Below, piece after piece: positions 6,699 through 63,841 of a DNA stretch of 64,000 bases. A program made the translations under genes and the position numbers. The DNA comes from Acidobacteriota bacterium (GTDB lineage Bacteria > Zixibacteria > MSB-5A5 > GN15 > FEB-12). The notes below the pieces were generated by a model. That model did no database searches, was not told the origin of the DNA, and saw nothing but the letters and a program-made list of their open reading frames with translations. Where the stretch lies: positions 76,264 to 140,263 of the forward strand of contig DATKXK010000014.1 of the NCBI GenBank assembly GCA_035529075.1, given 5' to 3'. Each line of letters starts with the position of its first letter. Positions within the stretch are counted from its first letter, which is position 1.

Positions 6699-6980
6699 AA
6701 TATGATAGCAGCGGGGCAACGACTTTACTCCTTCGTGTATCCATCGCCCGGGCAAGTCGATCCTTGCAATGCAAGGTATCTGGTCTTACGAAACGAGTTC
6801 GACAGATCATGAGTGGATTCGTCTGATTGATGTAGAAGGTTGAGCTGGGGGTTCCGCAGCCAGAGGGTAAATCACCGCAACAGCCCGCCTGGAGTACCTG
6901 AGACAGAAAGGCTAGAGTTTTTCAGTCGAGGACTGCCCGTCCGGTCAGGGCGGAAGTTCGTGACCCGAAGGGGGAGTATT

Positions 6981-22896: not shown

Positions 22897-25554
22897 TTGA
22901 AAAGACGGTTGTCAAACTTCCTTCCCGCAACCCTGACACTTCTGCTGGTGATCGCGGCAGGACCGGTGCAAGCCGGTGTGACCGGCAAAGTCTCGGGTGC
23001 GGTGGAGGACGGAAACACAGGGGCGCCGGTAATCGGAGCGACGGTTCGCGTTGCGGGCACCAGCCTGGCCACCAAGACTGACGAGGACGGAGAGTACTTC
23101 ATTATCAACGTCCCGGTGGGTAAGTACGACCTGGTCGCCACCCACGTCGGTTTTGAAACGGTCACCCGGAAGGAAGTACGAATACTCGTCGATCTAACAA
23201 CTCCGGTCGACTTCAATCTCGACCAAATAGCGGTCGAGTTGGGGGAGGCGGTGGTCGTGTACGCGTCCGAGCCGATTATTCGGCGGGACCTGACGGCGTC
23301 GCGCAGCATTTTCACGGCTGATCGGTTGAAGAACCTGCCCAATATCGTCACCGTTCAGACCGTGTTGACCAACTACCCGGGAGTGGTGGTCGACCGCGGC
23401 GAAGAACTGCACGTGCGCGGCGGGCGGTCCGGTCAGATTTCATACTACTTCGACGGGTTCTCGGTACAGGATCCGTTCGTGAACAAAGCCGGCATTCGGA
23501 TTATGCCGACCGCTCTCGAGGAGCTTTCGCTGACTTCCGGCGGGTTCACCGCTGAGTACGGCGAGGCCCTTTCGGGCGTGGTTAACGCGGTTACGCGAGA
23601 GGGAGGCCATGCCTACCGCGGCGGCCTGCGGTCCTACGAGGGCTTCACGCACACGTACTCCGTCGGCGACGCCGACTGGGGCCAAATGGACCGGCACGGC
23701 AACCGGTCGCTCAGCTTCGACGTCTCCGGGCCGGTGCCGGGACTTGACGGCAAACGATATTCTTTCTTCGCCGCCGGCGAGTACCTGGACAAGCGGACAC
23801 ACCTTCCCCATGACCGGGAGGCAAGCTACACGACGGCGGCCAAGCTGTCGTTGCAGCCGACGCCCAGGTTGAAACTAAAGTCGAACGTGACGTTCTTCGA
23901 CTCCAATGGCGACCTGTACACGCATCGAGACGTCAACGGGCGGTCGTATGACTTCAACCTTGACGGTTTGCCGTCATTCGAAAAGCGAGCCTACCTGGCC
24001 GGCGTGTCCGGAAACTACCATTTCAACGAACGTACCATCCTGTCGGCCGCGTTCAACCGGTTTTCGACGCGCACGCTCACGGCGCCGGGACACCTGATGG
24101 ACGTTCACTGGAGCCGGTGGCCGGGCTATTCAGAGGATGCGGACGGCACCTACGACGGGACCATCCACGAGGACAACTACGGTAACAACCCGGACAACTC
24201 CGATCCCTATGAGATATTCGGCTTTACCACCGGCGATGACTTCGAACCGACCTACTCGTTTCGCGAGACGAAGTACAGTTCGTTGAGCGGCAGCCTGGTC
24301 AAGCAGGTCGACAAGAACAACCAGGTCAAGGCGGGATTCGAATACCGCCAGTATGACATCGCCAAGGACTTCCGGCAGTTCTATAATACCAAGCCCTACT
24401 ACGAGACGTACGAGGCCAACCCGTTGTACGCGTCGTGCTTCCTCCAGGACAAGATTGAGTACGCCGCCTTCGTCGTCAATGTCGGGCTCCGTTACGACTA
24501 TCGTGACGCCGACATCGAGTACAACTCCACACCGGAGGACACGGTGGCGCACTACAAGGACGCCGATCCCAAGTCCAGGTGGTCGCCGCGCCTGGGCGTC
24601 TCGTTCCCCGTCTCGACGAAGACGGTGATGCACTTCAACTACGGAGTGTACTACCAGATGCCGACCTTCAGGTTTCTGTACTTCAACCCCGAAGGCGACA
24701 TCTCCTCCGGCCTGCCGCTGTTGGGCAATCCGGACCTGGCTCCCGAGCAGACCGCCTCCTATGAACTGGGTCTCGATCACCTGATCGGCGACGACATCCG
24801 CCTGGACGCCACGGCATACTACAAGGACATAAAGGACCTGGTGTCGGCCCGGTCGTTCAGGGTCAGTACGATCACCGTGACGCGGTTCACCAACGACGAT
24901 TACGGCTCAGTCAAGGGATTTGACGTTTCTCTGGAGAAGCTGCCCGGCGACGCCCACTGGAGCGGGTCCGTTTCGTACGGTTATATGCTGGCCAGCGGCA
25001 ACGGGTCCAATGCCCTGGAGCCGTACTACAACCTGAACACCTCGGACACTATCCTGCCGGTCACCGAGTACCCGCTTGACTTCGACCAGCGGCACACGGT
25101 CACGGCCATGGCGGACTGGCACGTCCCACCGCAGTGGAGCGGCAACCTGTTCGGGTTGAAATTGCCGGGTGCCTGGGGTTTCTCCATGGTTGGCTACTAC
25201 GGCTCCGGTCTGCCTTACACCAAGACCGATGCCGACGGCAACCGGTTCGGAGAACGCAACGAAGGCCGGCTGCCCGCCTACTACAGTGTCGATATGCGCT
25301 TTAACAAGGACTTCCGGACGGGCGCCAGCCAGATCCTGACCTTCTTTGTTGAGGTAGATAACGTCTTCAACCGGCGCAACGTGATCGACGTTTTCAGCCG
25401 CACCGGTCTTCCTGACAACGACGCCGTGTCTGTCTCCGGCAGCCTGGCGACCAATCAGGAGGAGATCGATGAGGCCAACCGGTTGTATGATCACGACCCA
25501 CAGCATTATTCCCCGCCGCGGACTATCAGAACGGGGTTTGAGCTAAGCTTTTGA
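22897..25554 (+). CDS. Family A outer-membrane protein (A1): CarboxypepD_reg-like domain + plug + TonB-dependent-receptor-like barrel
   Basis: TTG start after GGAGAGGAAG. Signal peptide present. GKVSGAVEDGNTGAPVIGATVRV...DGEYFIINVPVGKYDL, plug motif LHVRGGRSGQISYYFDGFSVQDP, and C-terminal GFELSF. Confidence 0.8.
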   Translation: MKRRLSNFLPATLTLLLVIAAGPVQAGVTGKVSGAVEDGNTGAPVIGATVRVAGTSLATKTDEDGEYFIINVPVGKYDLVATHVGFETVTRKEVRILVDLTTPVDFNLDQIAVELGEAVVVYASEPIIRRDLTASRSIFTADRLKNLPNIVTVQTVLTNYPGVVVDRGEELHVRGGRSGQISYYFDGFSVQDPFVNKAGIRIMPTALEELSLTSGGFTAEYGEALSGVVNAVTREGGHAYRGGLRSYEGFTHTYSVGDADWGQMDRHGNRSLSFDVSGPVPGLDGKRYSFFAAGEYLDKRTHLPHDREASYTTAAKLSLQPTPRLKLKSNVTFFDSNGDLYTHRDVNGRSYDFNLDGLPSFEKRAYLAGVSGNYHFNERTILSAAFNRFSTRTLTAPGHLMDVHWSRWPGYSEDADGTYDGTIHEDNYGNNPDNSDPYEIFGFTTGDDFEPTYSFRETKYSSLSGSLVKQVDKNNQVKAGFEYRQYDIAKDFRQFYNTKPYYETYEANPLYASCFLQDKIEYAAFVVNVGLRYDYRDADIEYNSTPEDTVAHYKDADPKSRWSPRLGVSFPVSTKTVMHFNYGVYYQMPTFRFLYFNPEGDISSGLPLLGNPDLAPEQTASYELGLDHLIGDDIRLDATAYYKDIKDLVSARSFRVSTITVTRFTNDDYGSVKGFDVSLEKLPGDAHWSGSVSYGYMLASGNGSNALEPYYNLNTSDTILPVTEYPLDFDQRHTVTAMADWHVPPQWSGNLFGLKLPGAWGFSMVGYYGSGLPYTKTDADGNRFGERNEGRLPAYYSVDMRFNKDFRTGASQILTFFVEVDNVFNRRNVIDVFSRTGLPDNDAVSVSGSLATNQEEIDEANRLYDHDPQHYSPPRTIRTGFELSF

Positions 25555-25566
25555 CGGAGCGGAAGT

Positions 25567-28299
25567 ATGAAAAGGAGCATGATGACATATTTGGTGGCGC
25601 TCGGGCTGGTGGTGGCAGTCCTGTTGCAGGCCGCGCCGGTGAGCGCCAAGCCGATCTCGGCCAGGCCCCCGCGGGTCGACACCGGCAGTACCGGAGGTAC
25701 CGGAGGACTGGCTCTCTTCCCCTCGCCCCTGACGATCGACCAGATCATTCACGACCGCGGTAACATCCTTACCACAGTCGACAACTGGGGGTACATCGGC
25801 GGGAGCCAATACTACGGACTGCCTTCGGGCGAGTGGCCGCGCAATTCCGGGCACGACTACATCGGTGAAATCAAGTACTGGATGGGGGCCGTTGACGCCG
25901 GCGGCGACACTCTGGTCGCTAACACCTACGATGACTTTCAGGGTCTTCCGTCGCTGATCTCGAGCGTTCCGCAGCAGAAGATTCTGCTGTCGACCGACAC
26001 GACGCGCTATTACGACTACAACCTGGAGGACACCACCGGGCTGGGCAACGGCAACCCGGCCCACGGGTGGCGCGTGTGGAACGCCGACTCCGCGGCCTGG
26101 GTCTGCACCCAGAACTACAATCCGCGCGACATGATCTTCTTCCCCGGGGGACCCGTTTCACTGCAGGAGTCGCACTATCGCTTCAATGACGCGTCCGGCG
26201 GTTCCTCGCTGATGGGCCTCGAGATGACCCACACCGTCTTGCAGTGGAACTACTGCTACAACGAGGATTTCGTTTTCGTGATCCTCGACATTGCGAACAC
26301 CTCGGCGATCGACTACACCGACTTTGCTTTCGGACTCTACGTCGATCTTGACGTCGGCGGTCCCGACGGTACGGGCGAGAACGGACGCCTCCATGACCTG
26401 GTGGCCTACGACTCGGCCGCCAACCTCGCCTGGACCTACGACTACGACAGCTATGATGAAGGCTGGCAAACCGAGACCGGCATCATGGGCACGAAATATC
26501 TCGAGACGCCGGACGACATCGGTATGACCGGTTTCAGAACCGGCGACTGGGGCCTGGTGCCGGAGACCGATGAAGGTCGTTTCCGCTTTCTTGACTCGGC
26601 CGGTTTTGACCCGCAACTGCCGCCTACCGATCAGTACTATATCCAGTGCACTCGCGGTATCTCGCTGGAGGCCGGCAAGACCGTTCGGGTCGTGTACGCG
26701 CTGGTGGCCGGTGAGGACAGTCTCGAGTTCCGGGACAACGCGGAGCTTGCCCAGCAGTTATATGACAACTACTTCGTCGGTCCCGAACCGCCGCCAACGC
26801 CGACACTGACCGTCGAGGCCAGTGACCAGAAGGTCTACCTGAAATGGGACGACACGGCGGAATTCGGCACCGACCCGCTGTCGGGCGAAAACGATTTCCG
26901 AGGCTACAAACTCTACCGCAGCGACAACCAGGGGAGAACCTGGGGCGAAGTGGTCGAGGACCTCGATAACAACTGCCTGGCGGTCGACTATGAGGCCATC
27001 GGCGACTACTGGGTCAGCACCCCCGGCGATCCGATTCAGCACAGCTACATCGACACCGACCTGTTCAACGGCATTGAATACTGGTATACGCTCGTGGCCT
27101 ATGACACCGGGGCTATTGACCTGGGCGTTGACTGGCTGCAATCCGGGTTCGGTGTCGCCGGCGGAGTGCCCAACGTGGTGGCCGTCACGCCGCGCGACGA
27201 CCCGGCCGGGTTCTACGAGGCCGCCGGTACGGTGGCACACGAATACTCCGGGGTCGTTTCGCCGTCGGCAGGCAACGTTATCCCGACCGTATTCGACCGG
27301 AATGCCCTGCTGGGAGCCGACTACAGGGTCGTGTTTGAGGATACTCCTGCACGTACTTACTGGCATCTGATCAACGTGACCACGGGAGACACCGTCCTGG
27401 CCAATCAGACCCGCTCTGAGGGTGACCCCGGCCTGTACGAGGTTGCCGAGGGTCTGCGAGTGGTCGTCCGCGACGCCGACCGGGTCCCGTTGAACATGGA
27501 ACAGACGGAGTTGGGCGGCGCCGAGGCAACCCTGGTGGCCGACCCGGGAGCATTCTACGGGGTGGTCATTGAGTACTTCTACGGCGTGTATTTCGGCTGC
27601 GAGCACTACCGGTCCACGTATGAATTCCGGTACACCGGTAACTCGACGGTGGCCAGCGCGTTCAACGACACGCTCGGCCAGGGTACGGCCTGGTCGGTGC
27701 CGTTTGAGGTCTGGAACACCACCACTGACCAGCGCGTGTCGCTGGTCGTGTACGATTTCGGGCTCGACGGTGCCTGGGATCCCCGGGACCTGCTGATTGT
27801 CGTAAACTATCCGTACGACCCAATGGAGGATCCGTTCGTCACCGCCTGGCCGTACTATTTCAACTGGATGTTCGGCTTCGACACTACCGTCTACAATCCG
27901 GCCGTCGGAGACGTGTTCACAATCGAGGGTAGTCCGCTGAACAGCCCCGCCGACGCTTTTACCTTCAAGGTTGACGGCATCAGCGTTGCGACGGCCAAAG
28001 CCTCCCTGAACGACATCAGGGTTGTGCCGGATCCGTACCTTGTGCACAACTGGTCCAAGATTGAGCTTTCGGGCGCGGAGCCCGTTCTGGAGTTCCAGAA
28101 TATCCCGGACAAGTGCACCATCCGGATTTACTCGTTGTCCGGAGACCTCATCAAGACCATAGAGCATGAAGGTGTTTCCGGCACGGCGCGCTGGGATCTG
28201 CTTTCGCAGGACCGGCAGCAGGTCGCGTCGGGGATTTACATCTATCACCTGGACTCGCCGTATGGCGAGCATTTGGGACGGTTCGCCGTCATCAAGTAA
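25567..28299 (+). CDS. Family B secreted protein (B2) with an FN3-like middle region and a T9SS-type C-terminal sorting-domain-like tail
   Basis: Signal peptide MTYLVALGLVVAVLLQAAPVSA. Paralogue of B1 (see 9062-11464). Starts 12 nt after A1. Confidence 0.8.
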   Translation: MKRSMMTYLVALGLVVAVLLQAAPVSAKPISARPPRVDTGSTGGTGGLALFPSPLTIDQIIHDRGNILTTVDNWGYIGGSQYYGLPSGEWPRNSGHDYIGEIKYWMGAVDAGGDTLVANTYDDFQGLPSLISSVPQQKILLSTDTTRYYDYNLEDTTGLGNGNPAHGWRVWNADSAAWVCTQNYNPRDMIFFPGGPVSLQESHYRFNDASGGSSLMGLEMTHTVLQWNYCYNEDFVFVILDIANTSAIDYTDFAFGLYVDLDVGGPDGTGENGRLHDLVAYDSAANLAWTYDYDSYDEGWQTETGIMGTKYLETPDDIGMTGFRTGDWGLVPETDEGRFRFLDSAGFDPQLPPTDQYYIQCTRGISLEAGKTVRVVYALVAGEDSLEFRDNAELAQQLYDNYFVGPEPPPTPTLTVEASDQKVYLKWDDTAEFGTDPLSGENDFRGYKLYRSDNQGRTWGEVVEDLDNNCLAVDYEAIGDYWVSTPGDPIQHSYIDTDLFNGIEYWYTLVAYDTGAIDLGVDWLQSGFGVAGGVPNVVAVTPRDDPAGFYEAAGTVAHEYSGVVSPSAGNVIPTVFDRNALLGADYRVVFEDTPARTYWHLINVTTGDTVLANQTRSEGDPGLYEVAEGLRVVVRDADRVPLNMEQTELGGAEATLVADPGAFYGVVIEYFYGVYFGCEHYRSTYEFRYTGNSTVASAFNDTLGQGTAWSVPFEVWNTTTDQRVSLVVYDFGLDGAWDPRDLLIVVNYPYDPMEDPFVTAWPYYFNWMFGFDTTVYNPAVGDVFTIEGSPLNSPADAFTFKVDGISVATAKASLNDIRVVPDPYLVHNWSKIELSGAEPVLEFQNIPDKCTIRIYSLSGDLIKTIEHEGVSGTARWDLLSQDRQQVASGIYIYHLDSPYGEHLGRFAVIK
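28015..28296 (+). other. T9SS C-terminal-domain-like (FlgD-Ig-like) tail of B2
   Basis: IRVVPDPY....LEFQNIPDKCTIRIYSLSGDLIKTIEH....ARWDLLSQDRQQVASGIYIYHLDSPYGEHLGRFAVIK. It follows the V-PNP ... I-IYD-G ... W-G ... SGVY pattern of Por secretion tails. Confidence 0.55.
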
Positions 28300-28312
28300 A
28301 GGAGGCTGGAGC

Positions 28313-29305
28313 GTGAAAAAAATAGTCGTTTTTCTGCTGGTGTTCGCCCTGGTGGGGACAGCCTCCGCTGAACAGTCGAAGGTTGGTTCCGCCGGAGCGC
28401 AGTTTCTCAAGATCGGTGTCGGCTCCCGGTACCAGGCGATGGGGGAGGCCTCGGTGGCTTGTGCCAACGACGTGTACGCGATGTACTGGAACCCGGCCGG
28501 CCTGGCTGAGATTGAAAACGCCGCCGTCAGCTTTACCAACGTCAACTGGATCCTCGACGTCGACCTGAACTATGTGGCCATCGCCAAGAACTTCGAGGAC
28601 GTCGGTGTCTTCGGCGCCTCGGCGACGGTGCTGTCGATGGACGAACAGGAGGTCACGCGGGCGGATATGCCCGAGGGTACGGGGGAGCGCTACGACGCCG
28701 GTTCCTATGCCATCGGAGTCTCTTTCGCGCGTCACCTGACCAACAAGTTCGCCTTCGGCGCCTCCTTCAAGTACGTCGGCGAAAAGATCTACCTGGAGGA
28801 ATCGAGAGGCTTCGCCTTTGACTTCGGAACCCTTCTGTACACGGGCTTCCGCTCGCTGCGTCTGGGCATGAGCATCTCCAACATGGGACCGGAACTGCAG
28901 TTTTCCGGGCCCGACGTGCGCTACGACGAACTGCTGGGTGACGGTGCCAACGATCCGTTTGACGCTCAACTGAAGACAACGCCTTACGACTTGCCCCTCG
29001 TGTTTCGGGTCGGTGTTGCCTACGACCTCGAGATGGCTCAGAACTCCGTTCTGACCGTCTCGGCCGAGATGAAGCACCCTAACGACAACAATCAGCAGGG
29101 CGGCATCGGCGCGGAGTACGGTTTCGCCGAGAAGTTCTTCCTGCGCGGCGGCTACAAGCTGAACTACGAGGAGGAAACACTCTCCTTCGGCGGCGGCTTG
29201 CGAACCTCGGTCGGCTCGGATGCTTCGCTCGTAATCGACTATTCCTGGCAGGACTTCGGGCGGCTGAATTCCGCGCAGCGGTTTTCCGTCGGCTTTGCCT
29301 TCTAA
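28313..29305 (+). CDS. Family C PorV/PorQ-like outer-membrane barrel (C1)
   Basis: GTG 28313 follows AAAGGAGG and gives the signal peptide VKKIVVFLLVFALVGTASA. GSAGAQFLKIGVGSRYQAMGEASVACANDVYAMYWNPAGLA resembles the PorV-family N-terminus. The C-terminus ends in FSVGFAF. Confidence 0.7.
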   Translation: MKKIVVFLLVFALVGTASAEQSKVGSAGAQFLKIGVGSRYQAMGEASVACANDVYAMYWNPAGLAEIENAAVSFTNVNWILDVDLNYVAIAKNFEDVGVFGASATVLSMDEQEVTRADMPEGTGERYDAGSYAIGVSFARHLTNKFAFGASFKYVGEKIYLEESRGFAFDFGTLLYTGFRSLRLGMSISNMGPELQFSGPDVRYDELLGDGANDPFDAQLKTTPYDLPLVFRVGVAYDLEMAQNSVLTVSAEMKHPNDNNQQGGIGAEYGFAEKFFLRGGYKLNYEEETLSFGGGLRTSVGSDASLVIDYSWQDFGRLNSAQRFSVGFAF

Positions 29306-53017: not shown

Positions 53018-55954
53018 ATGCAGACTTCCTCACAAAAGTTGGACTTCGATAACCGCCTGTTATCAGTCGAAGAGCTTTTTAGGCAGCGGAAATATGACGT
53101 TGCCCGCCGCGAGTTGGAGGGCCTGAGCGAAGAGGACTTCAACGGCGGCCAGCATGAAGCAGGGTTGCTTCTGGCTCTGAAGACTGACATTTGTTTCAAC
53201 GACGGGGTTTACCGGCAGGCGATTGAGATGGGCCTGCGCGGTGCCAGGATCCTGGCTGGTTTTCCACTCAACCGTCGCTACGGGCGGCTGTTGCTGGTCT
53301 TGTCCAAGACCTTCTCGGCGCTTGGCGATCTCAAGAACGCTGAAATCCGAGCACACGACGCGTTAGCATCCTATCGTCGGGCAGATGAGCCGCTGGGGCA
53401 GGTGGACGCGCTTAACGAGTTGGCGCGCATCGCCTTTACGCGAGGTGACTTCCAAGCTGCGGCCGGGTTTCTTGAAGATGCCATTGAGCAGGCTGCCGGA
53501 GATGACCGAAAAGTCGCTCTGTTGACCGGTAACGCCGGTGTCCTTCATACCCTGACCGGCCAGTGGAACCAGGCGGAATTGGATCTGAAGGCAGCCCTTA
53601 AGTACCACACTGAGGTCTCCAACGAGATCTCCGCAGCCCGCAACCTTCTGTCCCTGAGTTACCTGCATATCTGCAGGCGCGAGTTCGTCTTCGCCGAGCG
53701 TTTTCTGTCCAAGGCGTTGAAGCTGATCGAGAAGCTGGACCTCAAGCGCGAAAAGGTCATCTATCTCGAATACATCGGCGAGCTGGCTCTGGAGAAGGGG
53801 GACGCATTCAAAGCCAAGTCCCTGCTTGCCGAAGCTTACCATGAAGGCCGGCTGCTGGCTTCCGGGTCAGCGCTCGTCTCGCAGTCAGGCCGGCGTCTCG
53901 CCGAAGCGGAACTGCTCCTGGACAACCATGACGAGGCCATGAAGTACGGGCAGAAGGCACTGGAGTTGTCTCTGCAGATCGGTGAGAAGTCTGAGTTGGT
54001 GATGGCCCGGCGCGTCACCGGGCTCGTTTTTGCGGCCCGGGGCGAGTATGAAGACGCTCTGAAACACGTCAATCAGGCCGTGGAGCTGGCACGTGAAGTG
54101 CGGGATCCTCTGACACGGGCCCGCACGCTGTTGTCGCTGGCCGACATCAAAATCGCGGCTGGATCGGACGAGGTTCAGCGGATTCGTGCCGTCCTTGACG
54201 AAGCCAGACGCCTCTTCAAGAAGCTCGGGCTTGATTACTGGGTTGCCGAGACCGACCTGAAGGCCGGCACGTTTGCCTGCCGGCAGGGTGATCTTCCGCG
54301 TGGCTTCAAGAGGCTCAGCCGTGCCGAGAAGACATTCTCAATGCTGGGCGACTCGGCCAGGGTTCGCAAGGTGCACCAGTTTCTAACGACACTGGCCGAT
54401 CAGGCGGTGGCGCTGTCGGTTTCCCAGGAAAACGAATTCAAGGTCTTCGGTACTTTGCTCAACCAGTCCGATCTGGAGGATTTGAGGACCGGCCGCATCG
54501 ACCAGGTTCTGGAGGTGTTGACGCGCCGGACGGGTGCTGCGCGCGCCATCATCTTTACTCCCGATTTCGAAGACAGTCCGGTCACGGCTTCTTTTCCCCT
54601 GACCCCCTTCCAGGCACGCAGGTTTGCAGACGGTTTCGGGCAGTTGATGGGTGAAGAGATCGCCCGCGACAGACCCACCCTTTTGCTCGATTGTCGGCGC
54701 GATCCTTACATTAACAACCTCCTGCCCGATATTCCGGACGTGGTGGCCAGCGTGATCGTTATTCCGTTCAAGATGAGCGACAATACCACCAGTTACATAT
54801 ACCTGGACAAGCTGTCGTTCGACAATACGCTGAACCCGTTCAGCCAGACGCAGTTGAATTTCGCCGTCGGCTTTTCCGATATCATCGCCTTTAAGTCGGC
54901 AGAGTTGCACAAGATGAAGCTGCAGGAGGATAACCGCCGCCTGAAGGCCCAGTTGCAGGAGCAGGCGGCGTTCCCGAACATTCTCACCCGCAACTCGGCC
55001 ATGCTGGAACTGTTGTCGCAGGTACGGCAGGTCGTCGACTCCAATATCTCGGTAGCCATCGAAGGTGAGACGGGCTGCGGCAAGGATATTCTCGCGCGTG
55101 CGATTCACTACAATTCCGGCAGGCGCGACCGGCGGTTTATTTCCGTGAACTGTGCGGCCCTGCCTGAGACACTTCTCGAATCGGAACTGTTCGGTTACCG
55201 GAGAGGTGCCTTCACCGGCGCCGATCGTGACAAGTCGGGCCTTTTTGAAGAGGCCGACCGCGGCACCTTCTTCCTGGATGAAATCGCCGACATGCCGTTA
55301 AGCGTGCAGGCGAAAATCCTGCGAGTGCTGGAGGAGCAGGAGATTGTCCGTCTTGGCGAGAGCGTTCCGCGCAAAGTGGATGTTCGTATCATTTCAGCGA
55401 CCAATCGTGATCTCAAGGAAGAGATGGAGACGGGGCGGTTCCGACCCGACCTGTATTATCGGCTGTCGGCTCTGACGTTCCGGCTACCGGCACTTCGAGA
55501 ACGGAGAGAGGATATCCCTCTGCTGGTCAATCACTTCCTGGGGGAAAGCGGCAAGCGGGTCTCGCCTGAGGTCATGCGAGCGCTGGTCGCCTACGGTTGG
55601 CCCGGGAACGTTCGGGAGCTGGAGAATGAGATCAAGAAAATGGTCCTGCTTACCGGCGACATCGAGGAGATCGGTGCCGCTGTTCTCTCAGGCAAGATAG
55701 TCTCGGTCAGTCAGCACGCGGCGCCGGAGTTGGATGCTGATCTTTCCGGATATGACGAACTCGCGTTTGACGAGCAGTACTCTCTTTATGACTATCTGGA
55801 GGCGCATGAGCGCCGCTTCATCATCCAGGCGCTCAGGGAGCGCAACGGTGTCAAGAAGCACGCGGCGGCGGCACTGAACATTCCCGAATCGACCCTGCGC
55901 CTGAAGATCAAGCAGTACAACATCGATCTCGACCGGCTTGACGCGGTCAACTGA
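53018..55954 (+). CDS. Sigma-54-dependent transcriptional activator with a long TPR N-terminus, GAF-like domain, AAA+ domain and Fis-type HTH; no receiver domain
   Basis: GETGCGKDILARAIH Walker A, the GAFTGA loop (YRRGAFTGAD), WPGNVRELEN, and the C-terminal HTH AAAALNIPESTLRLKIKQY. The first roughly 430 aa show TPR-like periodicity. Confidence 0.85.
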   Translation: MQTSSQKLDFDNRLLSVEELFRQRKYDVARRELEGLSEEDFNGGQHEAGLLLALKTDICFNDGVYRQAIEMGLRGARILAGFPLNRRYGRLLLVLSKTFSALGDLKNAEIRAHDALASYRRADEPLGQVDALNELARIAFTRGDFQAAAGFLEDAIEQAAGDDRKVALLTGNAGVLHTLTGQWNQAELDLKAALKYHTEVSNEISAARNLLSLSYLHICRREFVFAERFLSKALKLIEKLDLKREKVIYLEYIGELALEKGDAFKAKSLLAEAYHEGRLLASGSALVSQSGRRLAEAELLLDNHDEAMKYGQKALELSLQIGEKSELVMARRVTGLVFAARGEYEDALKHVNQAVELAREVRDPLTRARTLLSLADIKIAAGSDEVQRIRAVLDEARRLFKKLGLDYWVAETDLKAGTFACRQGDLPRGFKRLSRAEKTFSMLGDSARVRKVHQFLTTLADQAVALSVSQENEFKVFGTLLNQSDLEDLRTGRIDQVLEVLTRRTGAARAIIFTPDFEDSPVTASFPLTPFQARRFADGFGQLMGEEIARDRPTLLLDCRRDPYINNLLPDIPDVVASVIVIPFKMSDNTTSYIYLDKLSFDNTLNPFSQTQLNFAVGFSDIIAFKSAELHKMKLQEDNRRLKAQLQEQAAFPNILTRNSAMLELLSQVRQVVDSNISVAIEGETGCGKDILARAIHYNSGRRDRRFISVNCAALPETLLESELFGYRRGAFTGADRDKSGLFEEADRGTFFLDEIADMPLSVQAKILRVLEEQEIVRLGESVPRKVDVRIISATNRDLKEEMETGRFRPDLYYRLSALTFRLPALRERREDIPLLVNHFLGESGKRVSPEVMRALVAYGWPGNVRELENEIKKMVLLTGDIEEIGAAVLSGKIVSVSQHAAPELDADLSGYDELAFDEQYSLYDYLEAHERRFIIQALRERNGVKKHAAAALNIPESTLRLKIKQYNIDLDRLDAVN

Positions 55955-55983
55955 CTTGCTGTCAGGTCCGGTTGTAAGGTGTT

Positions 55984-56011
55984 GCGTCCCCGTCGACGGG
56001 ACGCTTTTTTA
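55984..56011 (+). terminator. Intrinsic terminator
   Basis: GCGTCCC-CGTCGAC-GGGACGC followed by TTTTTT. Confidence 0.8.
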
Positions 56012-56017
56012 TAGCCT

Positions 56018-56815
56018 ATGACCAGAGCGCGCTACGACGCACATTTCGCCGCCGATCCGTACTACAACATGGCCTTTGACGAATGGCTGCTTTGTCGGGC
56101 CCTCGCCGAGCCAGCCTCCATATTCGTCCGGCTGTATACGTGGCGGGTGGGGGCTATAACGTTCGGGTTCAACCAGAACGAGAGAACCGCCCTCGATTTC
56201 TCGCGCCTTGACGGCACTCCGGTCATTCGGCGGGTGACCGGGGGGCGGGCCGTGTTTCACGACCCCTCGGAGTTGACTTACGCGGTCGCTGTCAACAGGG
56301 AAGGCCTGGCGCACGCAAGCTTGTCCGGCTCGCTCTCGCAGACCTGCCGGGCCATAGCCGGGGCGCTCCAGGATTTTCTCGACCGGGTCGGGGTCGTCTC
56401 GGAGTATGTCCACGTCTCGACGCCGGGGCAGGGGCGGCGGGAGTTTTTCAACAAGGCCCCGTGTTTCGCCTCGGCGGCGCGGCATGAGTTGGTGGCGGCC
56501 GGCCGTAAGGTGGTGGCTTCCGCGCAGAGGCGTATTGGCCCGGCGCTGCTCCAGCACGGGTCGATCAAAATGGGCGGAGTGGCCGTACATCCGGCGCTGC
56601 ACGGCCCGGCTGACTCGCCCCAAAACCCCCTTCCCCTGACCGGCCGGGAGTTCGCCGCGTGGTCTGAGGACTTTGCCGCCACCCTGGCCGGTTCTCTCGG
56701 AATCGATATCGAGCCGGACGCGCTTTCGTCACATGACGTACGGCAGGTAGCCGCACGCGTCGAATACCTCAAAAAAAACTCCTGCGCGAAGCGTCAAATT
56801 GTTAAACGACTGTGA
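56018..56815 (+). CDS. Lipoate/biotin protein ligase family (BPL_LplA_LipB catalytic domain) protein
   Basis: NMAFDEWLL, VRLYTW..GAITFGFNQ, VIRRVTGGRAVFHD.SELTYAV and GRKVVASAQRR (catalytic Lys region). Confidence 0.7.
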   Translation: MTRARYDAHFAADPYYNMAFDEWLLCRALAEPASIFVRLYTWRVGAITFGFNQNERTALDFSRLDGTPVIRRVTGGRAVFHDPSELTYAVAVNREGLAHASLSGSLSQTCRAIAGALQDFLDRVGVVSEYVHVSTPGQGRREFFNKAPCFASAARHELVAAGRKVVASAQRRIGPALLQHGSIKMGGVAVHPALHGPADSPQNPLPLTGREFAAWSEDFAATLAGSLGIDIEPDALSSHDVRQVAARVEYLKKNSCAKRQIVKRL

Positions 56816-57143: not shown

Positions 57144-60100
57144 ATGGTTTTCAATACCCGGAAGACTCGTGTCGTGTTAGCGGCCATAGCGGGTATGCTG
57201 GCCCTGTTGCCTTTGATCGTTTTGGCTGGCTCCACGGGGCAGATCAAGGGGAGGATTATTGACGCAGAGACGGGCGAACCGGTTGTCCAGGCATCGGTAC
57301 TTATTCTTGGTACTACCATGGGCAACACTACGGACTTGGATGGGTATTACCTCATCTCACGGGTGCCACCGGGAACGTATACGGTTAGAATGTCTTCCGT
57401 CGAATACAAGACTGTCGATATTACCGACGTTGTCGTGAGTGCCGACCTCACCAGCGAGCAGAACCGGGAAGTGGAGAAGAAAGTCACCGAACTCGATGAG
57501 ACTATCACGGTGAAGGGGACGCGTGACCTTCTCGACAAGTTCCAGACCGGCACGCAGGTCAACATCAGCCAGGAGACTATCAAGCATCGGCCGGTTCAGA
57601 CGGTGGACGCGCTGCTCGAGCAGGTTCCGGGTGTTCAGACGACGGCGGCCGGTGAGGTGTTCGTCCGCGGCGGCCGGGCCGGGGAGGTTTCGTTTATCGT
57701 CGACGGTGTGCCGATCGGTGATCCGCTCGGCGGCCTCGGACAGTCCGGCGCTAACCTCTCGCTGGTGTCCGGCTCGATCCAGGAAATCCAGATCATTAAG
57801 GATGGGTTCGATCCTGAGTACGGAAACGCGCTCTCGGGCATCGTGAACATCCGGAGCCAGACGGGGTCGAAGGACGCCACTCGCTTTAATATGCAGATCC
57901 TCACCGATGACCTCGGCAACTCCGACCTCAATGAGTTCTCGCGGAATTACGATTACATGCGGGCTTCTATTTCCGGTCCCGATCCGATTATAGCCGACAA
58001 GCTGTTTCCGGCCCTCGGCCTGAATTTCCTCGTCGACAAGGAGTTCACTTACTACCTGTACGGCGAGATGGAGAAGGACGATGGTGTTTTTCAGTACACC
58101 TCGTTTGACACGCCAGAAACGCGGCGTGACTGGTCGTCCTTCAACCTCTTTGGTTTTGACGTTCCCGAGCGGCTGCGCAACCGGTACCACGTCCAGGCGA
58201 ACTTCAAGATGCGCCCCAAGCAGAACATGCGCGTGGTGCTGTCACTGAAGAAGTGGATTACGCGCAACACGAAATTCGCGTGGGATCACCGCTACTCGTC
58301 GGCTACGGCACCGGTGGAGCGGCAGGAGAGGTCTGCTGTATCGCTGGAGCTTATCCAACAGGTCTCCAAAGACATGAACTATGAAGCCATTCTCTCGGTC
58401 ACGAATTTCGCGTATTCCGAGAAGCCCGGCGACCCGGACAACCCGGGGCGGGGGCTGGACCCTGACGACTTCCTGCTGCAAAGCGACTGGGAAGACTGGT
58501 CCGACACCAACCGCAACGGCATATATGACGCTCCGGAACCGGTGATCAACCTTTTCCCGGATACGGCCACGTTTGGCACCAACTTCTCCGGCCCTGCGTA
58601 CACGTACGGAGAGTTCTATGACCTGGACGGGGACGGTGTTTTCGACGACGATGCCCTGATTCTGCCCAACGTCCAGGGAGGCGGCATTATTGAGGGCAAC
58701 TTCCGCTTCAACAACAACGGCGTCTATGATCTTCTTGAGGGGGAAGCGTTTATAGATCTCAACGGCAACGGCGTGTGGGACCGCGGTGAGTTCCTTACCG
58801 ACAAGAACGGCAACGGCCAACTCGACCGTTACCGCCTTTCGCCGATCAACACGCGTGACGATGAGCCGTTCATCGACGGTGACTCGATCCTGGGTGAACC
58901 GTTCACCGACATCAACTCCAACGGCGGCTACGACATTGGCATCGACATTTTCGTGATCAGCGACGATGAAAACGTCAACCAGGATTACAACCACAACGGC
59001 CGGTACGACGGTCCCGAGGACCGTTGGACGCCGAAAGTTCCCTACTGGGATCGGAACGGCAACGGGATCTACGACGAGCCCAACACGGTGTATGATCCGG
59101 GTGAACCGTACGTTGACGTGAACGGTAACGGCGAGTACGATTTCGGCGGCTCCGGGACGTTCCTCAACTCGAATCAGCACCAGGATACAACCAGGTGGCA
59201 TCACCGTGAGGTACGCACGTACCGGGGTGAGGTGAAGGTTTTCCGCCAGATGGGCAAGCACGAAGTGAAAGGCGGGGTGGCGCTGACCTACGAGGATCTC
59301 ATCTACCAGGAGATAGAGCGTCCGTACCTGCCGTACACCGGCCGTGAGGACGGCGGTCCGTATCCGGATCGCGGCGCTTTCCGCGACTTTTACAGTTTCA
59401 AACCGTGGACCGGCACCGTATACATGCGTGACAAGCTGGAGTACGGTTCGATGATCGCCAATCTGGGCCTGCGCCTGGATTTCTTCCTGCAGGATACGGA
59501 CCGTCTTGCTGACATTCTTCGGTCTGATGACCGCGGCGGCATTATCGACGGCGACCGCCACAAGATCTCGCCGCGTATCGGGTTCTCATACCCCATCTCG
59601 GACAAGGCCAAGGTCTATTTCAACTACGGTCACTTCTTCCAGTTGCCGCAGTTTATGTTGATGTACGCGCGGAACACGTCGTCGGTGAACCAGAACGACG
59701 TTATCGGTAATCCGAACCTGGATTACCAGAAGACGATCCAGTACTCGTTCGGCGTCAAGTATGCCATGTCCGAAAGCTACTCCGTCGACCTGCAGGGTTA
59801 CTTCAAGGACGAGTTCGACAAGATTAACTCGGCGCGTATCCGTGACGGCTCCGTTTTCCGCCAGGCCTATCGCAACAGTGACTATGGTCGCAGTCGAGGC
59901 GTTGAGGTCACGCTGGAGAAGCGCACCGGCAACGTCAGCGGCCAGGTCAGTTACACTTACGCCTTCGCCTTCGGTAAGGCGTCCAAGCACAACGAATTCT
60001 TCCTGTCGGACTTCCTGCTGTCTCGTGAGCCGCTCTCGGAGCGTGCCCTGGACAACGACATCAGGCACAGCCTCAAGGCCGGCATCCAGATATATATGCC

Positions 60101-60515
60101 GAGGACGAGTAAGCCGCGACTGTTCGGTTTTCCGATTCCCAGCGGGTGGTCGCTGACCATCCAGTCGGTTATTGAGTCGGGGATGCCGTTCACGCCGGCC
60201 CAGAGCTTCCCGGATATTTCCGCTGACGGTACGGAGGACATCGAGAGGAACTCGATGCGGTTGCCATCGACGGCCGTGTTTGACGCCCGGTTCTCGAAGG
60301 AGTTCGAGCTGGCCGGCGTTGACTGGGAGGTTATCTTCTGGGTTGAGAACCTGCTGGACAGCCGTAACGTTTTGGGCGTGTACTCAGGCACCGGTCGGGC
60401 CGACACGGACCAGAACCGCAACCAGGTAGTCTTCGGCGGCACCGAGTTCTCCAAGAACCCGTTAAACTGGGACTACGGCCGTCAGATTCGGGTCGGTCTG
60501 GAGATGAGCTTGTAA
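57144..60515 (+). CDS. Family A outer-membrane protein (A2): CarboxypepD_reg-like + plug + TonB-type barrel with an inserted Ca-loop repeat array
   Basis: GAGGAGGAAG precedes the ATG. GQIKGRIIDAETGEPVVQASVLI..DGYYLISRVPPGTYTV, plug motif VFVRGGRAGEVSFIVDGVPIGDP, and C-terminal strand RVGLEMSL. Paralogue of A1. Confidence 0.8.
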   Translation: MVFNTRKTRVVLAAIAGMLALLPLIVLAGSTGQIKGRIIDAETGEPVVQASVLILGTTMGNTTDLDGYYLISRVPPGTYTVRMSSVEYKTVDITDVVVSADLTSEQNREVEKKVTELDETITVKGTRDLLDKFQTGTQVNISQETIKHRPVQTVDALLEQVPGVQTTAAGEVFVRGGRAGEVSFIVDGVPIGDPLGGLGQSGANLSLVSGSIQEIQIIKDGFDPEYGNALSGIVNIRSQTGSKDATRFNMQILTDDLGNSDLNEFSRNYDYMRASISGPDPIIADKLFPALGLNFLVDKEFTYYLYGEMEKDDGVFQYTSFDTPETRRDWSSFNLFGFDVPERLRNRYHVQANFKMRPKQNMRVVLSLKKWITRNTKFAWDHRYSSATAPVERQERSAVSLELIQQVSKDMNYEAILSVTNFAYSEKPGDPDNPGRGLDPDDFLLQSDWEDWSDTNRNGIYDAPEPVINLFPDTATFGTNFSGPAYTYGEFYDLDGDGVFDDDALILPNVQGGGIIEGNFRFNNNGVYDLLEGEAFIDLNGNGVWDRGEFLTDKNGNGQLDRYRLSPINTRDDEPFIDGDSILGEPFTDINSNGGYDIGIDIFVISDDENVNQDYNHNGRYDGPEDRWTPKVPYWDRNGNGIYDEPNTVYDPGEPYVDVNGNGEYDFGGSGTFLNSNQHQDTTRWHHREVRTYRGEVKVFRQMGKHEVKGGVALTYEDLIYQEIERPYLPYTGREDGGPYPDRGAFRDFYSFKPWTGTVYMRDKLEYGSMIANLGLRLDFFLQDTDRLADILRSDDRGGIIDGDRHKISPRIGFSYPISDKAKVYFNYGHFFQLPQFMLMYARNTSSVNQNDVIGNPNLDYQKTIQYSFGVKYAMSESYSVDLQGYFKDEFDKINSARIRDGSVFRQAYRNSDYGRSRGVEVTLEKRTGNVSGQVSYTYAFAFGKASKHNEFFLSDFLLSREPLSERALDNDIRHSLKAGIQIYMPRTSKPRLFGFPIPSGWSLTIQSVIESGMPFTPAQSFPDISADGTEDIERNSMRLPSTAVFDARFSKEFELAGVDWEVIFWVENLLDSRNVLGVYSGTGRADTDQNRNQVVFGGTEFSKNPLNWDYGRQIRVGLEMSL
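58503..59141 (+). repeat. Array of nine D/N-x-[DN]-G-[DN]-G-x-x-D calcium-loop-like repeats inside A2
   Basis: DTNRNGIYD, DLDGDGVFD, NNNGVYD, DLNGNGVWD, DKNGNGQLD, DINSNGGYD, NHNGRYD, DRNGNGIYD and DVNGNGEYD. Confidence 0.7.
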
Positions 60516-60560
60516 TGTGAGCGTGTTAGAAGTTAAGCGATGAGAATAGATGAGGTAGAC

Positions 60561-61544
60561 ATGTGTATTGACAATAACCGGCAGAGGAGGCGCCGCCTGC
60601 GGGTCGTCCTTGTGGCTGTTCTCTGCATGATTGGCGCTGCGGGTTTGTGGCTGCCTGGAGACGTTGCCGCTCAGGCTAAGGTAGGTACGACGGGCGCGCA
60701 GTTCCTCGAACTCGGCCCCTCGGCGCGGGCAATGGGGATGGCCGAAGCGTTTTCCGCCGTGGTCGACGACATCTCCGCGGTGTACTACAATCCGGCCGCG
60801 CTGACGTCGCTCCTGGGCCGCGAGGTCATGTTCACGTACGTCGATATGCCCGCTGACATTCAGTACGGTTTCCTCGGTCTCGGCTTCCCGCTCGAATCCA
60901 TCGGCGGCGTGCTGGGGTTCGGCGCCTTTGGCCTGACCAGCGGCAGCATGGTTGAGCGGACGTACGAGCAGGGGACGATGGAAGGTACGGGGCGGGAGTT
61001 CAGCTGGAACGACTTCTCCATGGCGGTAAGCTACGGCCGGTATCTGACGGATCGCTTCTCGGTCGGCGTCACGCTCCGCTACATCGGTGAGTTCGTCCAC
61101 AACTACTCCACCAGCGGCTGGTCGGCCGACGTCGGGACCTCCTATGACACGGGGTATCGCGGGTTCAAAATCGCTATGGCGATCACCAACTTCGGCCCGG
61201 ACCTCCAGTTCATCGAGAAGGAATACCCGCTGCCGATCAATTTCCGGTTTGGCAGCGCCATAAACGTTGTGGAGTCCGTAGAGCACGTCGTCACCATGTC
61301 GGCCGAGGGCTCGCACCCGTCCGATAATTTGGAGAAGTACAATGCCGGTGCTGAGTACATGTTCAAGGATCGCTTCATCCTTCGTGCCGGCGGCCGGTTC
61401 AACTATGACGCCGATGGGTTCACCGCCGGCGGCGGGGTCCGAGTTCCGTTTGGCGAAGAGGGCGAACTGCGACTTGATTACGCCTTCCAGGATTTCGGAA
61501 TCCTGACGGAAATCCACCGGTTCTCAATGTCAATCGCGTTCTAG
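60561..61544 (+). CDS. Family C PorV/PorQ-like outer-membrane barrel (C2)
   Basis: Signal region RLRVVLVAVLCMIGAAGLWLPGDVAAQA. GTTGAQFLELGPSARAMGMAEAFSAVVDDISAVYYNPAAL. The C-terminus is FSMSIAF. Paralogue of C1. ATG 60540 is an alternative start. Confidence 0.7.
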   Translation: MCIDNNRQRRRRLRVVLVAVLCMIGAAGLWLPGDVAAQAKVGTTGAQFLELGPSARAMGMAEAFSAVVDDISAVYYNPAALTSLLGREVMFTYVDMPADIQYGFLGLGFPLESIGGVLGFGAFGLTSGSMVERTYEQGTMEGTGREFSWNDFSMAVSYGRYLTDRFSVGVTLRYIGEFVHNYSTSGWSADVGTSYDTGYRGFKIAMAITNFGPDLQFIEKEYPLPINFRFGSAINVVESVEHVVTMSAEGSHPSDNLEKYNAGAEYMFKDRFILRAGGRFNYDADGFTAGGGVRVPFGEEGELRLDYAFQDFGILTEIHRFSMSIAF

Positions 61545-61558
61545 GGAGAGACGAGGAA

Positions 61559-63841
61559 ATGACTATGAATTTTCGCAAAGCGGCGGTGGCCGCCCTGCTT
61601 GGTATCACAATCTTGGCGATGCTCTCTCTCTATGTGCCGGGGTGTACCGATCGTCTCAGCGGCGAAAAGACCCCGAATCAGGCGCCCGTCGTCTGGTTTG
61701 TCAACGTCCCGCCCGAGGACAGCCGGACCAGCACTAACCCGATCATTAACTGGGTTGGACAGGATATCGACGGCCAGGTGGTGATGTTTCGCTACGTCGT
61801 GTTCACCGAGCAGGAAATAATCGATACCTACTACGACGGTATTCCGCCGGTGCTCCCGCTCGACAGTGCCAGTGTCCAGCCGTTCGTCGACGAAGCCCTG
61901 ATGAAGCTCGAGGATATCGGGTGCGACACCGTGTATGAGGAAACGGCCGGGGGTATCGACACGGTTATCGACTGCGATACGACCGAGATCTGGACCTATC
62001 TGGAGGTTGACCCGCAGGCCGGCGATCCCAAGACGAGCAATATCATTCCGATGTCGGCGGAAGTCTCGGACCCCGTCCGGGTTCTCATCAGGCAGTACAT
62101 TTTCGTGCAGGCTTTCGATGAGCAGGGATTGGGCTCGGAGATTATCTTCCGTGCCTTCGACCGTAACGACAACCCGCCTGACACCCGCATCATCGGCTTC
62201 CTCGGCGGACCGTTTATCAACGCCGAATCGTCCGGCGGTTCCGTGACCGGTGTCCACATGCGGTGGCAGGGTTCCGATATCGTCGATTTCCCGACTGATC
62301 CGCCTCCCTTCGAATTCGAGTGGCGCCTGTATGGCCCCTACCTGTCCGACACTATCAACGACAGCACCTGGGAGGAGATTCAACTGCGGTTTGTCAGGAC
62401 AGTCTTCGTCACGAGGGACGCCCGCTTGTTCAGGTACGGGGAGAATGATACGCTGGTCACCTGCGATACCTCCTGGGTGCCGTACCTTGATACGGTCATC
62501 GAGGTCATTGAATGTGACAGCATCCCGATCGACACTATTACCGTGTCCAACGTCCTGGGCTACATAGATACGATCTATGATGTCGCAGATCCGGACTTTG
62601 CCGCTGACCCGCTGTTTGACCGCGTCGCGGCGCAGTCATATGATACTACGGACAGGGACGAGTGGATCAGCAACCTGCGCGACTCCGTCTATGATGTGTT
62701 TGCAGCCGAACCCTCGGATACGACCCAGGAGCAGTACTTCATTTTCTGGGTCCGTAGCCGCGACGATGCCAAAGTTCCGGACATGACACCGGCTTTCGAG
62801 ACGTTCAGCGTTATCGATCCGCACTACGAGCGCGATATCGGCATTCTGGACGTGCAGTTCAGTTTCTTCATAAACGCCGGGATCAGAGACTCGGCCCGGG
62901 CTTACTGGGTGCGGGCCATTGATGGCTGGGAAAACAGCGCGGGGACAGCCGGCAATTCGGGCGCTTACGACGACGCTACCGACTACATGATAGTAAACGT
63001 GGCGCAGGGAATCGGTGTCTCTTTACGCCAGATGCTCGCCCACAAGATCCTGATTTTAGTTAATGACAACTCCTATCCCGGAGCGATGGCCAACCCTGAC
63101 TTTAGTGATGATATCTTCACGGCCATAGATGCCGGCGTCAACGTATGGATGTGCGGCAGGGCACAGTTCTTCGGTGGCGAGGCCAGCGGGCCGAATTTCG
63201 AACCGATGGGCGGTGCGCCGGCGGGACTGGCGCTCAACATTCTGTTCTACTTCGGGATCGAGCAGTTTGCGTATTCCGGGTGGGAATGGCACATCCTGGG
63301 CCGGCCCTTGCCTCTGCCGCCGGTCCGGATAGAGGACTTCGTGGGCGCGCTCAGCCTGGAGAAGGACATCTTCCCCAATCTCACGGTCGACACCGCACAG
63401 TTGCACCAAAGGTACCTGTGGAAGGATCACTACCCGTGGAATTCTGATATAGCCGCCCTTCCGGAGGTGGACTGGTTCATCAGGACACCGGGATCGCTGG
63501 CTATGTACCTGTACAAGTCAAAGTACGGCTCCAAGCATTTCCTGAACGATCCCAACTTCGACTTCCAGGGCAAGCCGGTGGCGCATCGCCTGAACCGTGG
63601 TCTCTTCAGGACCGTATACTTCATGTTCACGCCGTACGCCCTGGCGGACTCGAGCATGCAGGTGACGATCGACGCCGTTCTGGACTGGCTGTACGAGAGG
63701 TATGCCACGACACCGCCTGCTGCGCCGAGGTACCTGGACGCCGGCATGCCGACCACGGTGCAGGAGGTTCGGCAGCGGTACTGGGAGCGTATGGAACGCA
63801 AGGCGCTGCAGGACCCCAAATTGGCCGAGACGTTCCGGTAA
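61559..63841 (+). CDS. Family D protein (D2), probable lipoprotein; function unknown
   Basis: The signal peptide ends in the lipobox-like LYVPG-C (Cys codon 61643-61645). Paralogue of D1, with an extra N-terminal region of roughly 200 aa and no dockerin-like module. Confidence 0.8.
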   Translation: MTMNFRKAAVAALLGITILAMLSLYVPGCTDRLSGEKTPNQAPVVWFVNVPPEDSRTSTNPIINWVGQDIDGQVVMFRYVVFTEQEIIDTYYDGIPPVLPLDSASVQPFVDEALMKLEDIGCDTVYEETAGGIDTVIDCDTTEIWTYLEVDPQAGDPKTSNIIPMSAEVSDPVRVLIRQYIFVQAFDEQGLGSEIIFRAFDRNDNPPDTRIIGFLGGPFINAESSGGSVTGVHMRWQGSDIVDFPTDPPPFEFEWRLYGPYLSDTINDSTWEEIQLRFVRTVFVTRDARLFRYGENDTLVTCDTSWVPYLDTVIEVIECDSIPIDTITVSNVLGYIDTIYDVADPDFAADPLFDRVAAQSYDTTDRDEWISNLRDSVYDVFAAEPSDTTQEQYFIFWVRSRDDAKVPDMTPAFETFSVIDPHYERDIGILDVQFSFFINAGIRDSARAYWVRAIDGWENSAGTAGNSGAYDDATDYMIVNVAQGIGVSLRQMLAHKILILVNDNSYPGAMANPDFSDDIFTAIDAGVNVWMCGRAQFFGGEASGPNFEPMGGAPAGLALNILFYFGIEQFAYSGWEWHILGRPLPLPPVRIEDFVGALSLEKDIFPNLTVDTAQLHQRYLWKDHYPWNSDIAALPEVDWFIRTPGSLAMYLYKSKYGSKHFLNDPNFDFQGKPVAHRLNRGLFRTVYFMFTPYALADSSMQVTIDAVLDWLYERYATTPPAAPRYLDAGMPTTVQEVRQRYWERMERKALQDPKLAETFR

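Follow-up and report, generated by a model that had tools for sequence, protein, structure and literature searches.

The genome assembly GCA_035529075.1, catalogued as an Acidobacteriota bacterium and placed by GTDB in the Zixibacteria, encodes on contig DATKXK010000014.1 a TonB-dependent outer-membrane transporter of the Oar type, here called A2, in which one loop between two strands of the barrel, by prediction the fourth extracellular loop (L4), has become a domain of 256 residues built from a short repeated unit. The gene lies in the 64,000-nucleotide stretch that we analysed (the window). Calcium binding by the loops of this domain is plausible on the strength of their sequence, and the role that we judge most likely for L4, with rather more confidence than doubt, is that of a rigid cap, ordered by calcium, which shapes or gates the site where substrate is captured. 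While the transporter is of a known kind, the L4 domain and the module at its core appear in none of the family libraries and none of the literature that we searched.

A repeated loop unit in A2

A preliminary description of the window quoted nine calcium-loop-like strings from A2, all of which are present in the translation within the span given in Table 1: DTNRNGIYD (beginning at residue 454), DLDGDGVFD (493), NNNGVYD (523), DLNGNGVWD (538), DKNGNGQLD (553), DINSNGGYD (589), NHNGRYD (616), DRNGNGIYD (636) and DVNGNGEYD (658). A2 contains eight matches to [DN]x[DN]x[DN]Gxx[DNE] and nine to the shorter [DN]x[DN]GxxD, always within this span, and none of the eight strict loops lies elsewhere in the protein. 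When the whole of A2 was shuffled 2000 times the mean number of matches was 0.07 for the nine-residue pattern and 0.21 for the seven-residue one, with maxima of 2 and 4; shuffling residues 430-690 alone, which controls for a composition rich in D, N and G, gave means of 0.19 and 0.32 and never more than 4 matches. The loops follow the form D1-x-[DN]3-x-N5-G6-x-aromatic8-D9 and are part of a unit of about 14 residues, G-E-P-[FY]-x-D-x-N-G-N-G-x-[YFW]-D, in which an acidic-aromatic stretch precedes each loop and whose strict form is matched by four copies in A2. The linkers between units are variable, with loop starts spaced 15-39 residues apart. L4 as a whole carries a net charge of -41 and contains no cysteine.

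The window holds a paralogous transporter, A1, which aligns with A2 at 29% identity over residues 6-299 and 31% over residues 746-1123 but not in the middle. Between the strands flanking L4 there are 256 residues in A2 and 55 in A1, and so the insert does account, as first proposed, for most of the difference in length between the two proteins (201 of 238 residues); the single loop ascribed to A1 is there also, as SEDADGTYDG at the aligned position.

Placement of the insert on the barrel

The position of L4 derives from the full-length AlphaFold2 model of A2 (mean pLDDT 53.9, rising to 70-84 in the barrel strands), in which exactly 22 strands can be counted, seven before the insert and fifteen after it. 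Tight turns of 2-4 residues occur at 359/362, 408/411, 703/706, 767/770, 817/822, 874/879, 926/931 and 1056/1059, and in the barrels of TonB-dependent transporters turns as tight as these face the periplasm. The insert is opposite these turns, on the long-loop side between predicted strands 7 and 8, which identifies it in the model as extracellular loop L4, and counting from either end, plug or C-terminal strand, gives the same placement. An extracellular insertion is what the preliminary description had supposed, and the structure prediction puts the segment neither in the periplasm nor in the barrel wall. Foldseek finds the nearest solved structures of the model among TonB-dependent transporters, the best being PqqU (9c4o, E 8.7e-19), with FecA, FemA and BtuB also matched.

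Conservation of L4 across the Zixibacteria

A search with the A2 protein scored 7,999 candidates, of which 802 were relatives at E ≤ 1e-3; the top 120 of these share 58-74% identity with A2, are 1060-1172 residues long and, where a source gives them a name, are labelled TonB-dependent receptors of Zixibacteria or GN15. Among close orthologues mean identity is 62% in L4, compared with 55% and 66% in the two barrel parts, so that L4 is conserved at the level of the barrel; the most conserved region is the plug (77% over 37 orthologues). An alignment of 38 orthologues contains 56 invariant L4 columns, comprising 33 D/N/E, 9 glycines, 7 prolines, 6 aromatics and a single leucine, which is the composition expected if selection keeps metal ligands and a small core.

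These features extend to the whole phylum. With the 277-residue insert as query (E ≤ 1e-5), a match was found in each of 121 genomes sampled evenly over 19 families and 80 genera; most of the matches listed, all but 32 weaker ones, sit in open frames of about 1030-1215 residues, and in distant families the match is confined to the final two thirds of the insert. One locus per family was then fetched. That homologues keep the repeats, a point on which the preliminary description had hung its proposal, is borne out by all 19 family representatives, each of which encodes a complete transporter whose L4 measures 186-274 residues and holds 5-8 strict loops; outside L4 there are no strict loops in 18 of them and one in the other. 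Counting loop by loop in A2 and the representatives (n=20), ligand positions 1, 3, 5 and 9 are kept in all 20 for loops 6 and 8, in 19 for loops 1 and 9, in 17 for loops 4 and 5, and in 15 for loops 3 and 7. The aromatic at position 8 is kept in 18-20 of the 20 for loops 1, 4, 5, 6, 8 and 9.

Loop 2 requires one amendment to the original count of nine, for although all nine loops are real, this one lies in a variable indel; about 4 of 38 close orthologues have it, and of the 20 phylum-wide sequences 6 retain it. Conversely, lineages L022 and L024 have extra units inserted elsewhere in L4, and a related transporter, whose cluster member is labelled as a Gemmatimonadota metagenome-assembled genome (MAG), has an L4 of about 570 residues at the same site. 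L4 therefore grows and shrinks by whole units.

A core module shared with other surface proteins

When the insert was folded alone, from an alignment of 107 rows, residues 150-245 of the piece (573-668 of A2, carrying loops 6-9) reached a pLDDT of 92-98 with almost no secondary structure assigned by DSSP. By this model the segment, of about 95 residues, is an autonomous unit, and it is present in 27 of 27 aligned relatives' loci. Among 1.84 billion representatives, searched exhaustively with phmmer, 316 proteins match at E ≤ 1e-3 and 129 at E ≤ 1e-10, and these fall into three groups. The first consists of transporters with CarboxypepD_reg and Plug domains (1088-1403 residues); the second of small proteins of 280-420 residues, 88 among the 150 matches listed, with no Pfam domain in the seven that were scanned; and the third of giant proteins that have 12-35 loops in addition to Big_1, DUF11 or Flg_new domains. 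Searching the listed representatives with a module profile gave 100 full-length copies, 67 in small proteins, 13 in proteins of transporter size and 20 in others. The small proteins look like lipoproteins: a lipobox-like motif occurs in 57 of the 88, those read in Zixibacteria loci have signal peptides ending in GC, and the median distance from that cysteine to the start of the module is 44 residues (n=43).

The lipoproteins of about 325-370 residues seen at loci L034-L038, in other Zixibacteria and at L002, in a MAG labelled Ignavibacteriales, carry the module near the lipid anchor; their C-terminal part of about 200 residues belongs to no known family, and they often stand in tandem arrays of two or three genes. 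The window's own genome has no such module lipoprotein. We considered, and rejected, the idea of a split gene, in which module lipoproteins stand in for L4 beside transporters that lack it: locus L002 has no transporter within 8 kb, and at six Zixibacteria loci the lipoprotein genes are alone or in tandem, with only L039 having two weak PorV-like genes some 3-4 kb upstream. A quick tree of the module (112 rows, restricted to full-length matches of at least 60 bits, with the rest of the 201 domain hits dropped) left 58 of 109 inner branches unsupported; one supported clade unites all 36 transporter modules with 18 of 66 lipoprotein modules and 7 of 10 others, and this mixture means that the direction of module transfer cannot be told.

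Relation of the loops to known families

The insert resembles EF-hand, thrombospondin type 3 and dockerin loops in the spacing of its ligands alone, judging from its sequence. Loops of the Dx[DN]xDG type are reported to bind calcium in many unrelated folds (PMC3123361, in extract), and those of EF-hand, TSP3, dockerin and integrin type share with A2 the oxygen ligands at positions 1, 3, 5 and 9 and the glycine at position 6; they differ in that the A2 loops have asparagine at position 5, an aromatic at position 8, no flanking helices and no cysteines. The insert model contains no helices around the loops of the kind required by an EF-hand helix-loop-helix, whose 12-residue loop closes with Glu or Asp. 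Nor does A2 match the models of these families. Searched over the whole genome at E ≤ 10, TSP_3 (PF02412), a family of disulfide-rich repeats, gives 53 matches and Dockerin_1 (PF00404), with paired loops that are each followed by a helix, 59, none of them in A2, and TSP3_bac (PF18884) and DUF7151 give no match at all. The preliminary description had likened the insert to dockerin-like modules elsewhere in the window, and since the two models match elsewhere in the genome and not in A2, this likeness is a resemblance and not membership; kinship is not supported.

Wider searches with the insert were equally empty. At E ≤ 10 Pfam offers nothing except GEVED (E 0.33), with no match to EF-hand, and NCBIfam has no match; sequence and profile searches of the PDB give no significant row (calbindin at E 0.2, a chitodextrinase at E 0.05), and the ESM Atlas returns only unnamed clusters with scores below 0.9. 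The insert model has no match in the PDB by Foldseek at E ≤ 10 and none with Z ≥ 2 among 48,161 chains by VIA-align, although for a model made only of loops an empty structure search shows neither novelty nor its lack. In the literature on TonB-dependent transporters of Zixibacteria, and on calcium-binding, EF-hand or TSP3 loops in such transporters, we found no prior description of a loop of this kind.

A2 as an Oar-type transporter

A2 has the three parts that define its type. Its N-terminal extension scores 64 bits with PF13715 and 57.5 with PF13620 (Pfam cut-offs about 32), and is thus the CarboxypepD_reg extension by which the Oar subclass is delimited (PMC6434023, in extract); the plug matches PF07715 at 44.6 bits (cut-off 23.9), and the barrel matches TonB_dep_Rec_b-barrel (PF00593) over residues 572-1070 at 85 bits (cut-off 27). 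The same three parts, including a CarboxypepD_reg-type extension, are found by Pfam in A1. There are seven genes with a plug domain in the window's genome, of which A2 is the longest, and the genome encodes TonB (two matches to TonB_C above cut-off). Residues 117-125 of A2 (LDETITVKG), between extension and plug, look by eye like a TonB box.

Among the closest described analogues is Oar of Myxococcus xanthus, which has the same extension, plug and 22-strand barrel in about 1100 residues and has been linked to secretion of the protease PopC (PMC6434023). However, the available extract of that source describes no calcium-loop domain in an extracellular loop of Oar, and A2 differs further by its position in a gene cassette with a PorV/PorQ barrel and a lipoprotein. 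Given the Oar-subclass architecture, A2 could, as an alternative to import, serve in export. The SusC/SusD systems of Bacteroidota are also similar, in that a lipoprotein gene follows the transporter gene and the transporter has a CarboxypepD_reg-type extension, but A2 is not a SusC/RagA protein (it scores 47.4 bits with TIGR04056, for which the cut-off is 368), a SusD-like protein is absent, transporter and lipoprotein are separated by a PorV/PorQ barrel, and the large putative cap belongs to the barrel chain itself.

A model for L4, and its alternatives

In proposing a role for L4, we need to explain the conserved ligand positions 1, 3, 5 and 9, the glycine at position 6, the aromatic at position 8, the negative charge and the lack of regular structure, from which we infer one calcium ion per loop and a rigid domain made of loops only. 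Our contention is that the fourth extracellular loop of A2 has expanded into a separate, strongly acidic and cysteine-free domain, made of eight or nine copies of the unit joined by linkers that differ in length. Each loop would hold one ion through D1, N3, N5, a backbone oxygen at position 7 and D9, as its sequence implies, while the aromatics at position 8 and the acidic residues before the loops may pack and bridge neighbouring units. With about eight ions bound, L4 could fold outside the cell as a rigid 'crown', free of helix and sheet, on the rim of the barrel, which would cap the pore and shape or gate the site of substrate capture.

The precedent, by analogy, is BtuB, another TonB-dependent transporter, which requires calcium in its extracellular loops for high-affinity binding of cobalamin and holds two ions in a cage of five aspartates from short loops (PMC7360065, in extract). 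L4 may be an enlarged version of this loop ordering, although in A2 the eight or nine units form a separate domain within one loop, and the two proteins are related in sequence only at the level of the superfamily (38 bits to the NCBIfam model for BtuB, against a cut-off of 836).

Extracellular loops decide what a TonB-dependent transporter takes up, and no other part of the protein usually varies as much. In A2 one such loop has turned into a domain that is as conserved as the barrel and that occurs in every sampled genome of an uncultured phylum, and its unit is covered by no family library or solved structure that we searched. Were L4 to bind about eight calcium ions, this would provide a simple handle on an outer-membrane machine found throughout the phylum; the module also defines a domain family that extends to lipoproteins and giant surface proteins.

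Several observations weigh against a calcium-ordered cap. The topology of A2 is based on predicted strands, and the pLDDT of L4 is 25-35 in the full-length model and 46-79 over the first 150 residues and the remainder of the insert-only model outside the core module, so that neither the fold of the whole crown nor its position over the pore is fixed by the models; no PDB structure resembles the module, and there is consequently no template for its function. The strict motif Dx[DN]xDG fits one loop of the nine, loop 2, because the others have asparagine at position 5 (with asparagine permitted there the motif fits eight), a PROSITE-type EF-hand pattern matches none of the A2 loops, and only loops 1 and 4 have a conserved acidic residue at position 12. 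Finally, the occurrence of the module near lipoprotein anchors and in the arrays of giant proteins is as compatible with a generic scaffold as with a substrate site.

A first alternative, which we regard as unlikely but deserving of attention, is that L4 is a docking platform, a seat in cis for surface proteins of the cassette (the 760-residue lipoprotein, the B-family protein of about 870 residues and/or the PorV/PorQ barrel), much as the loops of SusC hold SusD, with calcium doing no more than stiffening it. The cassette gene order is kept in the 19 family representatives, with a PorV-like gene downstream in 17, the lipidated cysteine of the lipoprotein is invariant in 15 of 15 sequences, and conservation as strong as that of the barrel would suit a protein-protein interface. 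Yet the invariant residues of L4 are almost all D, N, E, G, P or aromatic, leaving little conserved surface beyond what the loops need for themselves, and the B-family gene does not track the length of L4: A1 combines a short L4 with a B gene, A2 lacks a B gene although its L4 is long, and in other families a long L4 and a B gene occur together.

A role as passive shield or spacer seems to us improbable, and somewhat more so than docking. L4 would here be a scaffold stiffened by calcium that protects the mouth of the barrel against proteases, phages or bacteriocins, or forms a bridge to anionic polymers, with no part in selecting substrate; its charge of -41 would agree with this, as would the recurrence of its unit, in arrays 12-35 loops long, in giant proteins that also have Big_1, DUF11 or Flg_new domains and of an L4-type module as the anchor-proximal part of lipoproteins of about 330-370 residues. 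However, shields exposed to phages or competitors usually vary fast, while over 19 families L4 equals the barrel in conservation. We think it very doubtful that no metal is involved and that the D-x-N-G-N-G-x-Y-D strings are merely Asx/Gly turn motifs of a compact, loop-rich fold, for although position 5 is Asn and not Asp in eight of nine loops and no calcium-binding family model matches the insert, six loops retain the oxygen side chains at positions 1, 3, 5 and 9 and the glycine at position 6 in 17-20 of the 20 sequences, the loop spacing is that reported for known calcium loops (PMC3123361), and 256 residues of such charge and with almost no predicted secondary structure would be hard to fold without counter-ions.

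The calcium-ordered cap also admits a more ambitious extension, which we consider improbable: the module and its unit might be an undescribed family of calcium-dependent extracellular domains, and L4 the calcium-latched lid of a machine, composed of transporter, PorV/PorQ barrel and lipoprotein and present in every Zixibacteria cell, that moves or hands over large cargo, perhaps proteins as in Oar, with L4 receiving or releasing it. Gating by such a lid, a series of linked calcium sites, would be new for a TonB-dependent barrel.

The cassette around A2

Table 1. Positions of A2, its parts and the associated genes in the window
Feature	Position	Strand	Basis and remarks
A2, TonB-dependent transporter gene	57144..60515	+	Open reading frame and translation, 1123 aa; Oar-type: CarboxypepD_reg extension, plug and 22-strand barrel
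CarboxypepD_reg-like N-terminal extension, A2 aa 33-120	57240..57503	+	Pfam; pLDDT 75-83 in full-length model
Plug domain, A2 aa 139-232	57558..57839	+	Pfam PF07715
Predicted extracellular loop L4, A2 aa 428-683, 256 aa, all nine loops	58425..59192	+	Between predicted strands 7 (411-427) and 8 (684-703)
Loop span, first to last loop, A2 aa 454-666	58503..59141	+	Translation, pattern count
Loop 2, DLDGDGVFD, A2 aa 493-501, lineage-variable extra unit in indel	58620..58646	+	Ortholog alignments
Core module, A2 aa 573-668, loops 6-9	58860..59147	+	Insert-only fold; common to lipoproteins and giant surface proteins
A1, paralogous transporter with short L4 (55 aa, one relaxed loop)	22897..25554	+	885 aa; Pfam, alignment to A2
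TPR and sigma-54 activator	53018..55954	+	Pfam; upstream in 6 of 19 loci
LplA/B-like gene, conserved upstream neighbour	56018..56815	+	Pfam PF21948
PorV/PorQ-family outer-membrane barrel, conserved downstream neighbour	60540..61544	+	NCBIfam NF033709, 190 bits (cut-off 90)
760-aa lipoprotein, last cassette gene	61559..63841	+	Signal peptide ends VPGC29; synteny

The gene order conserved in the 19 family representatives is an LplA/B-like gene, the transporter, a B-family gene (850-1025 residues, 0-2 copies), the PorV/PorQ barrel and a lipoprotein of about 600-870 residues. The LplA/B-like gene is upstream in 17 loci, directly beside the transporter gene in 16 of these and about 6 kb away in L026, and the two loci with no PorV-like gene downstream of the A2 orthologue stop at the contig end; some of the loci counted for the sigma-54 activator are too short to show it. 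A scan for the sigma-54 promoter consensus with up to two mismatches gave 53 matches where 58 are expected, with no match in the interval that separates A2 from the activator gene. The 760-residue lipoprotein, whose invariant cysteine is Cys29, has no match in Pfam or NCBIfam, and a complex prediction between L4 (residues 428-690 of A2) and the lipoprotein (residues 30-760) returned a score of 0.00 (mark 0.32), which speaks neither for nor against binding.

Contigs from RNA libraries in three of three runs are identical to A2, including the DNA that encodes L4, and to both downstream genes, which is consistent with transcription, though not proof of it; no weight attaches to the stretch at about 55126-56609, taking in the last part of the activator gene and the bulk of the LplA/B-like gene, which has no cover by RNA contigs in the three runs and is covered by the DNA run. 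In one DNA run, X4, a single contig joins position 60055 back to 57103 through 38 other letters, and this may be an assembly chimera or a rearrangement in a strain.

The A1 cassette has a B-family protein of 910 residues after the transporter (25567-28299, +), the C-terminus of which (residues 808-892) is weakly like the C-terminal part of PorZ and PorU of the type IX secretion system (E 2e-5 and 4e-3, both well short of the cut-offs); homologues stand between transporter and PorV-like gene in many families. The PorV-like open reading frame that follows in the A1 cassette (28166-29305) overlaps the B-family gene by 134 nucleotides, and its true start is probably further downstream.

The cassette lipoprotein has a paralogue in the window, an open reading frame of 741 residues (6840-9065, +) that is 51% identical over residues 205-748 of the 760-residue protein; its N-terminal part is different and has a weak match to Dockerin_1 (16.8 bits). 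The genome is otherwise rich in cohesins and dockerins, with about 23 of its Dockerin_1 matches above cut-off (some only when summed with neighbours) and 12 matches to Cohesin, six of them above cut-off. Parts of this kind are found in the window at about 7146-7295 and 11264-11428, and together these sequences suggest a cellulosome-like surface assembly in a Zixibacteria genome.

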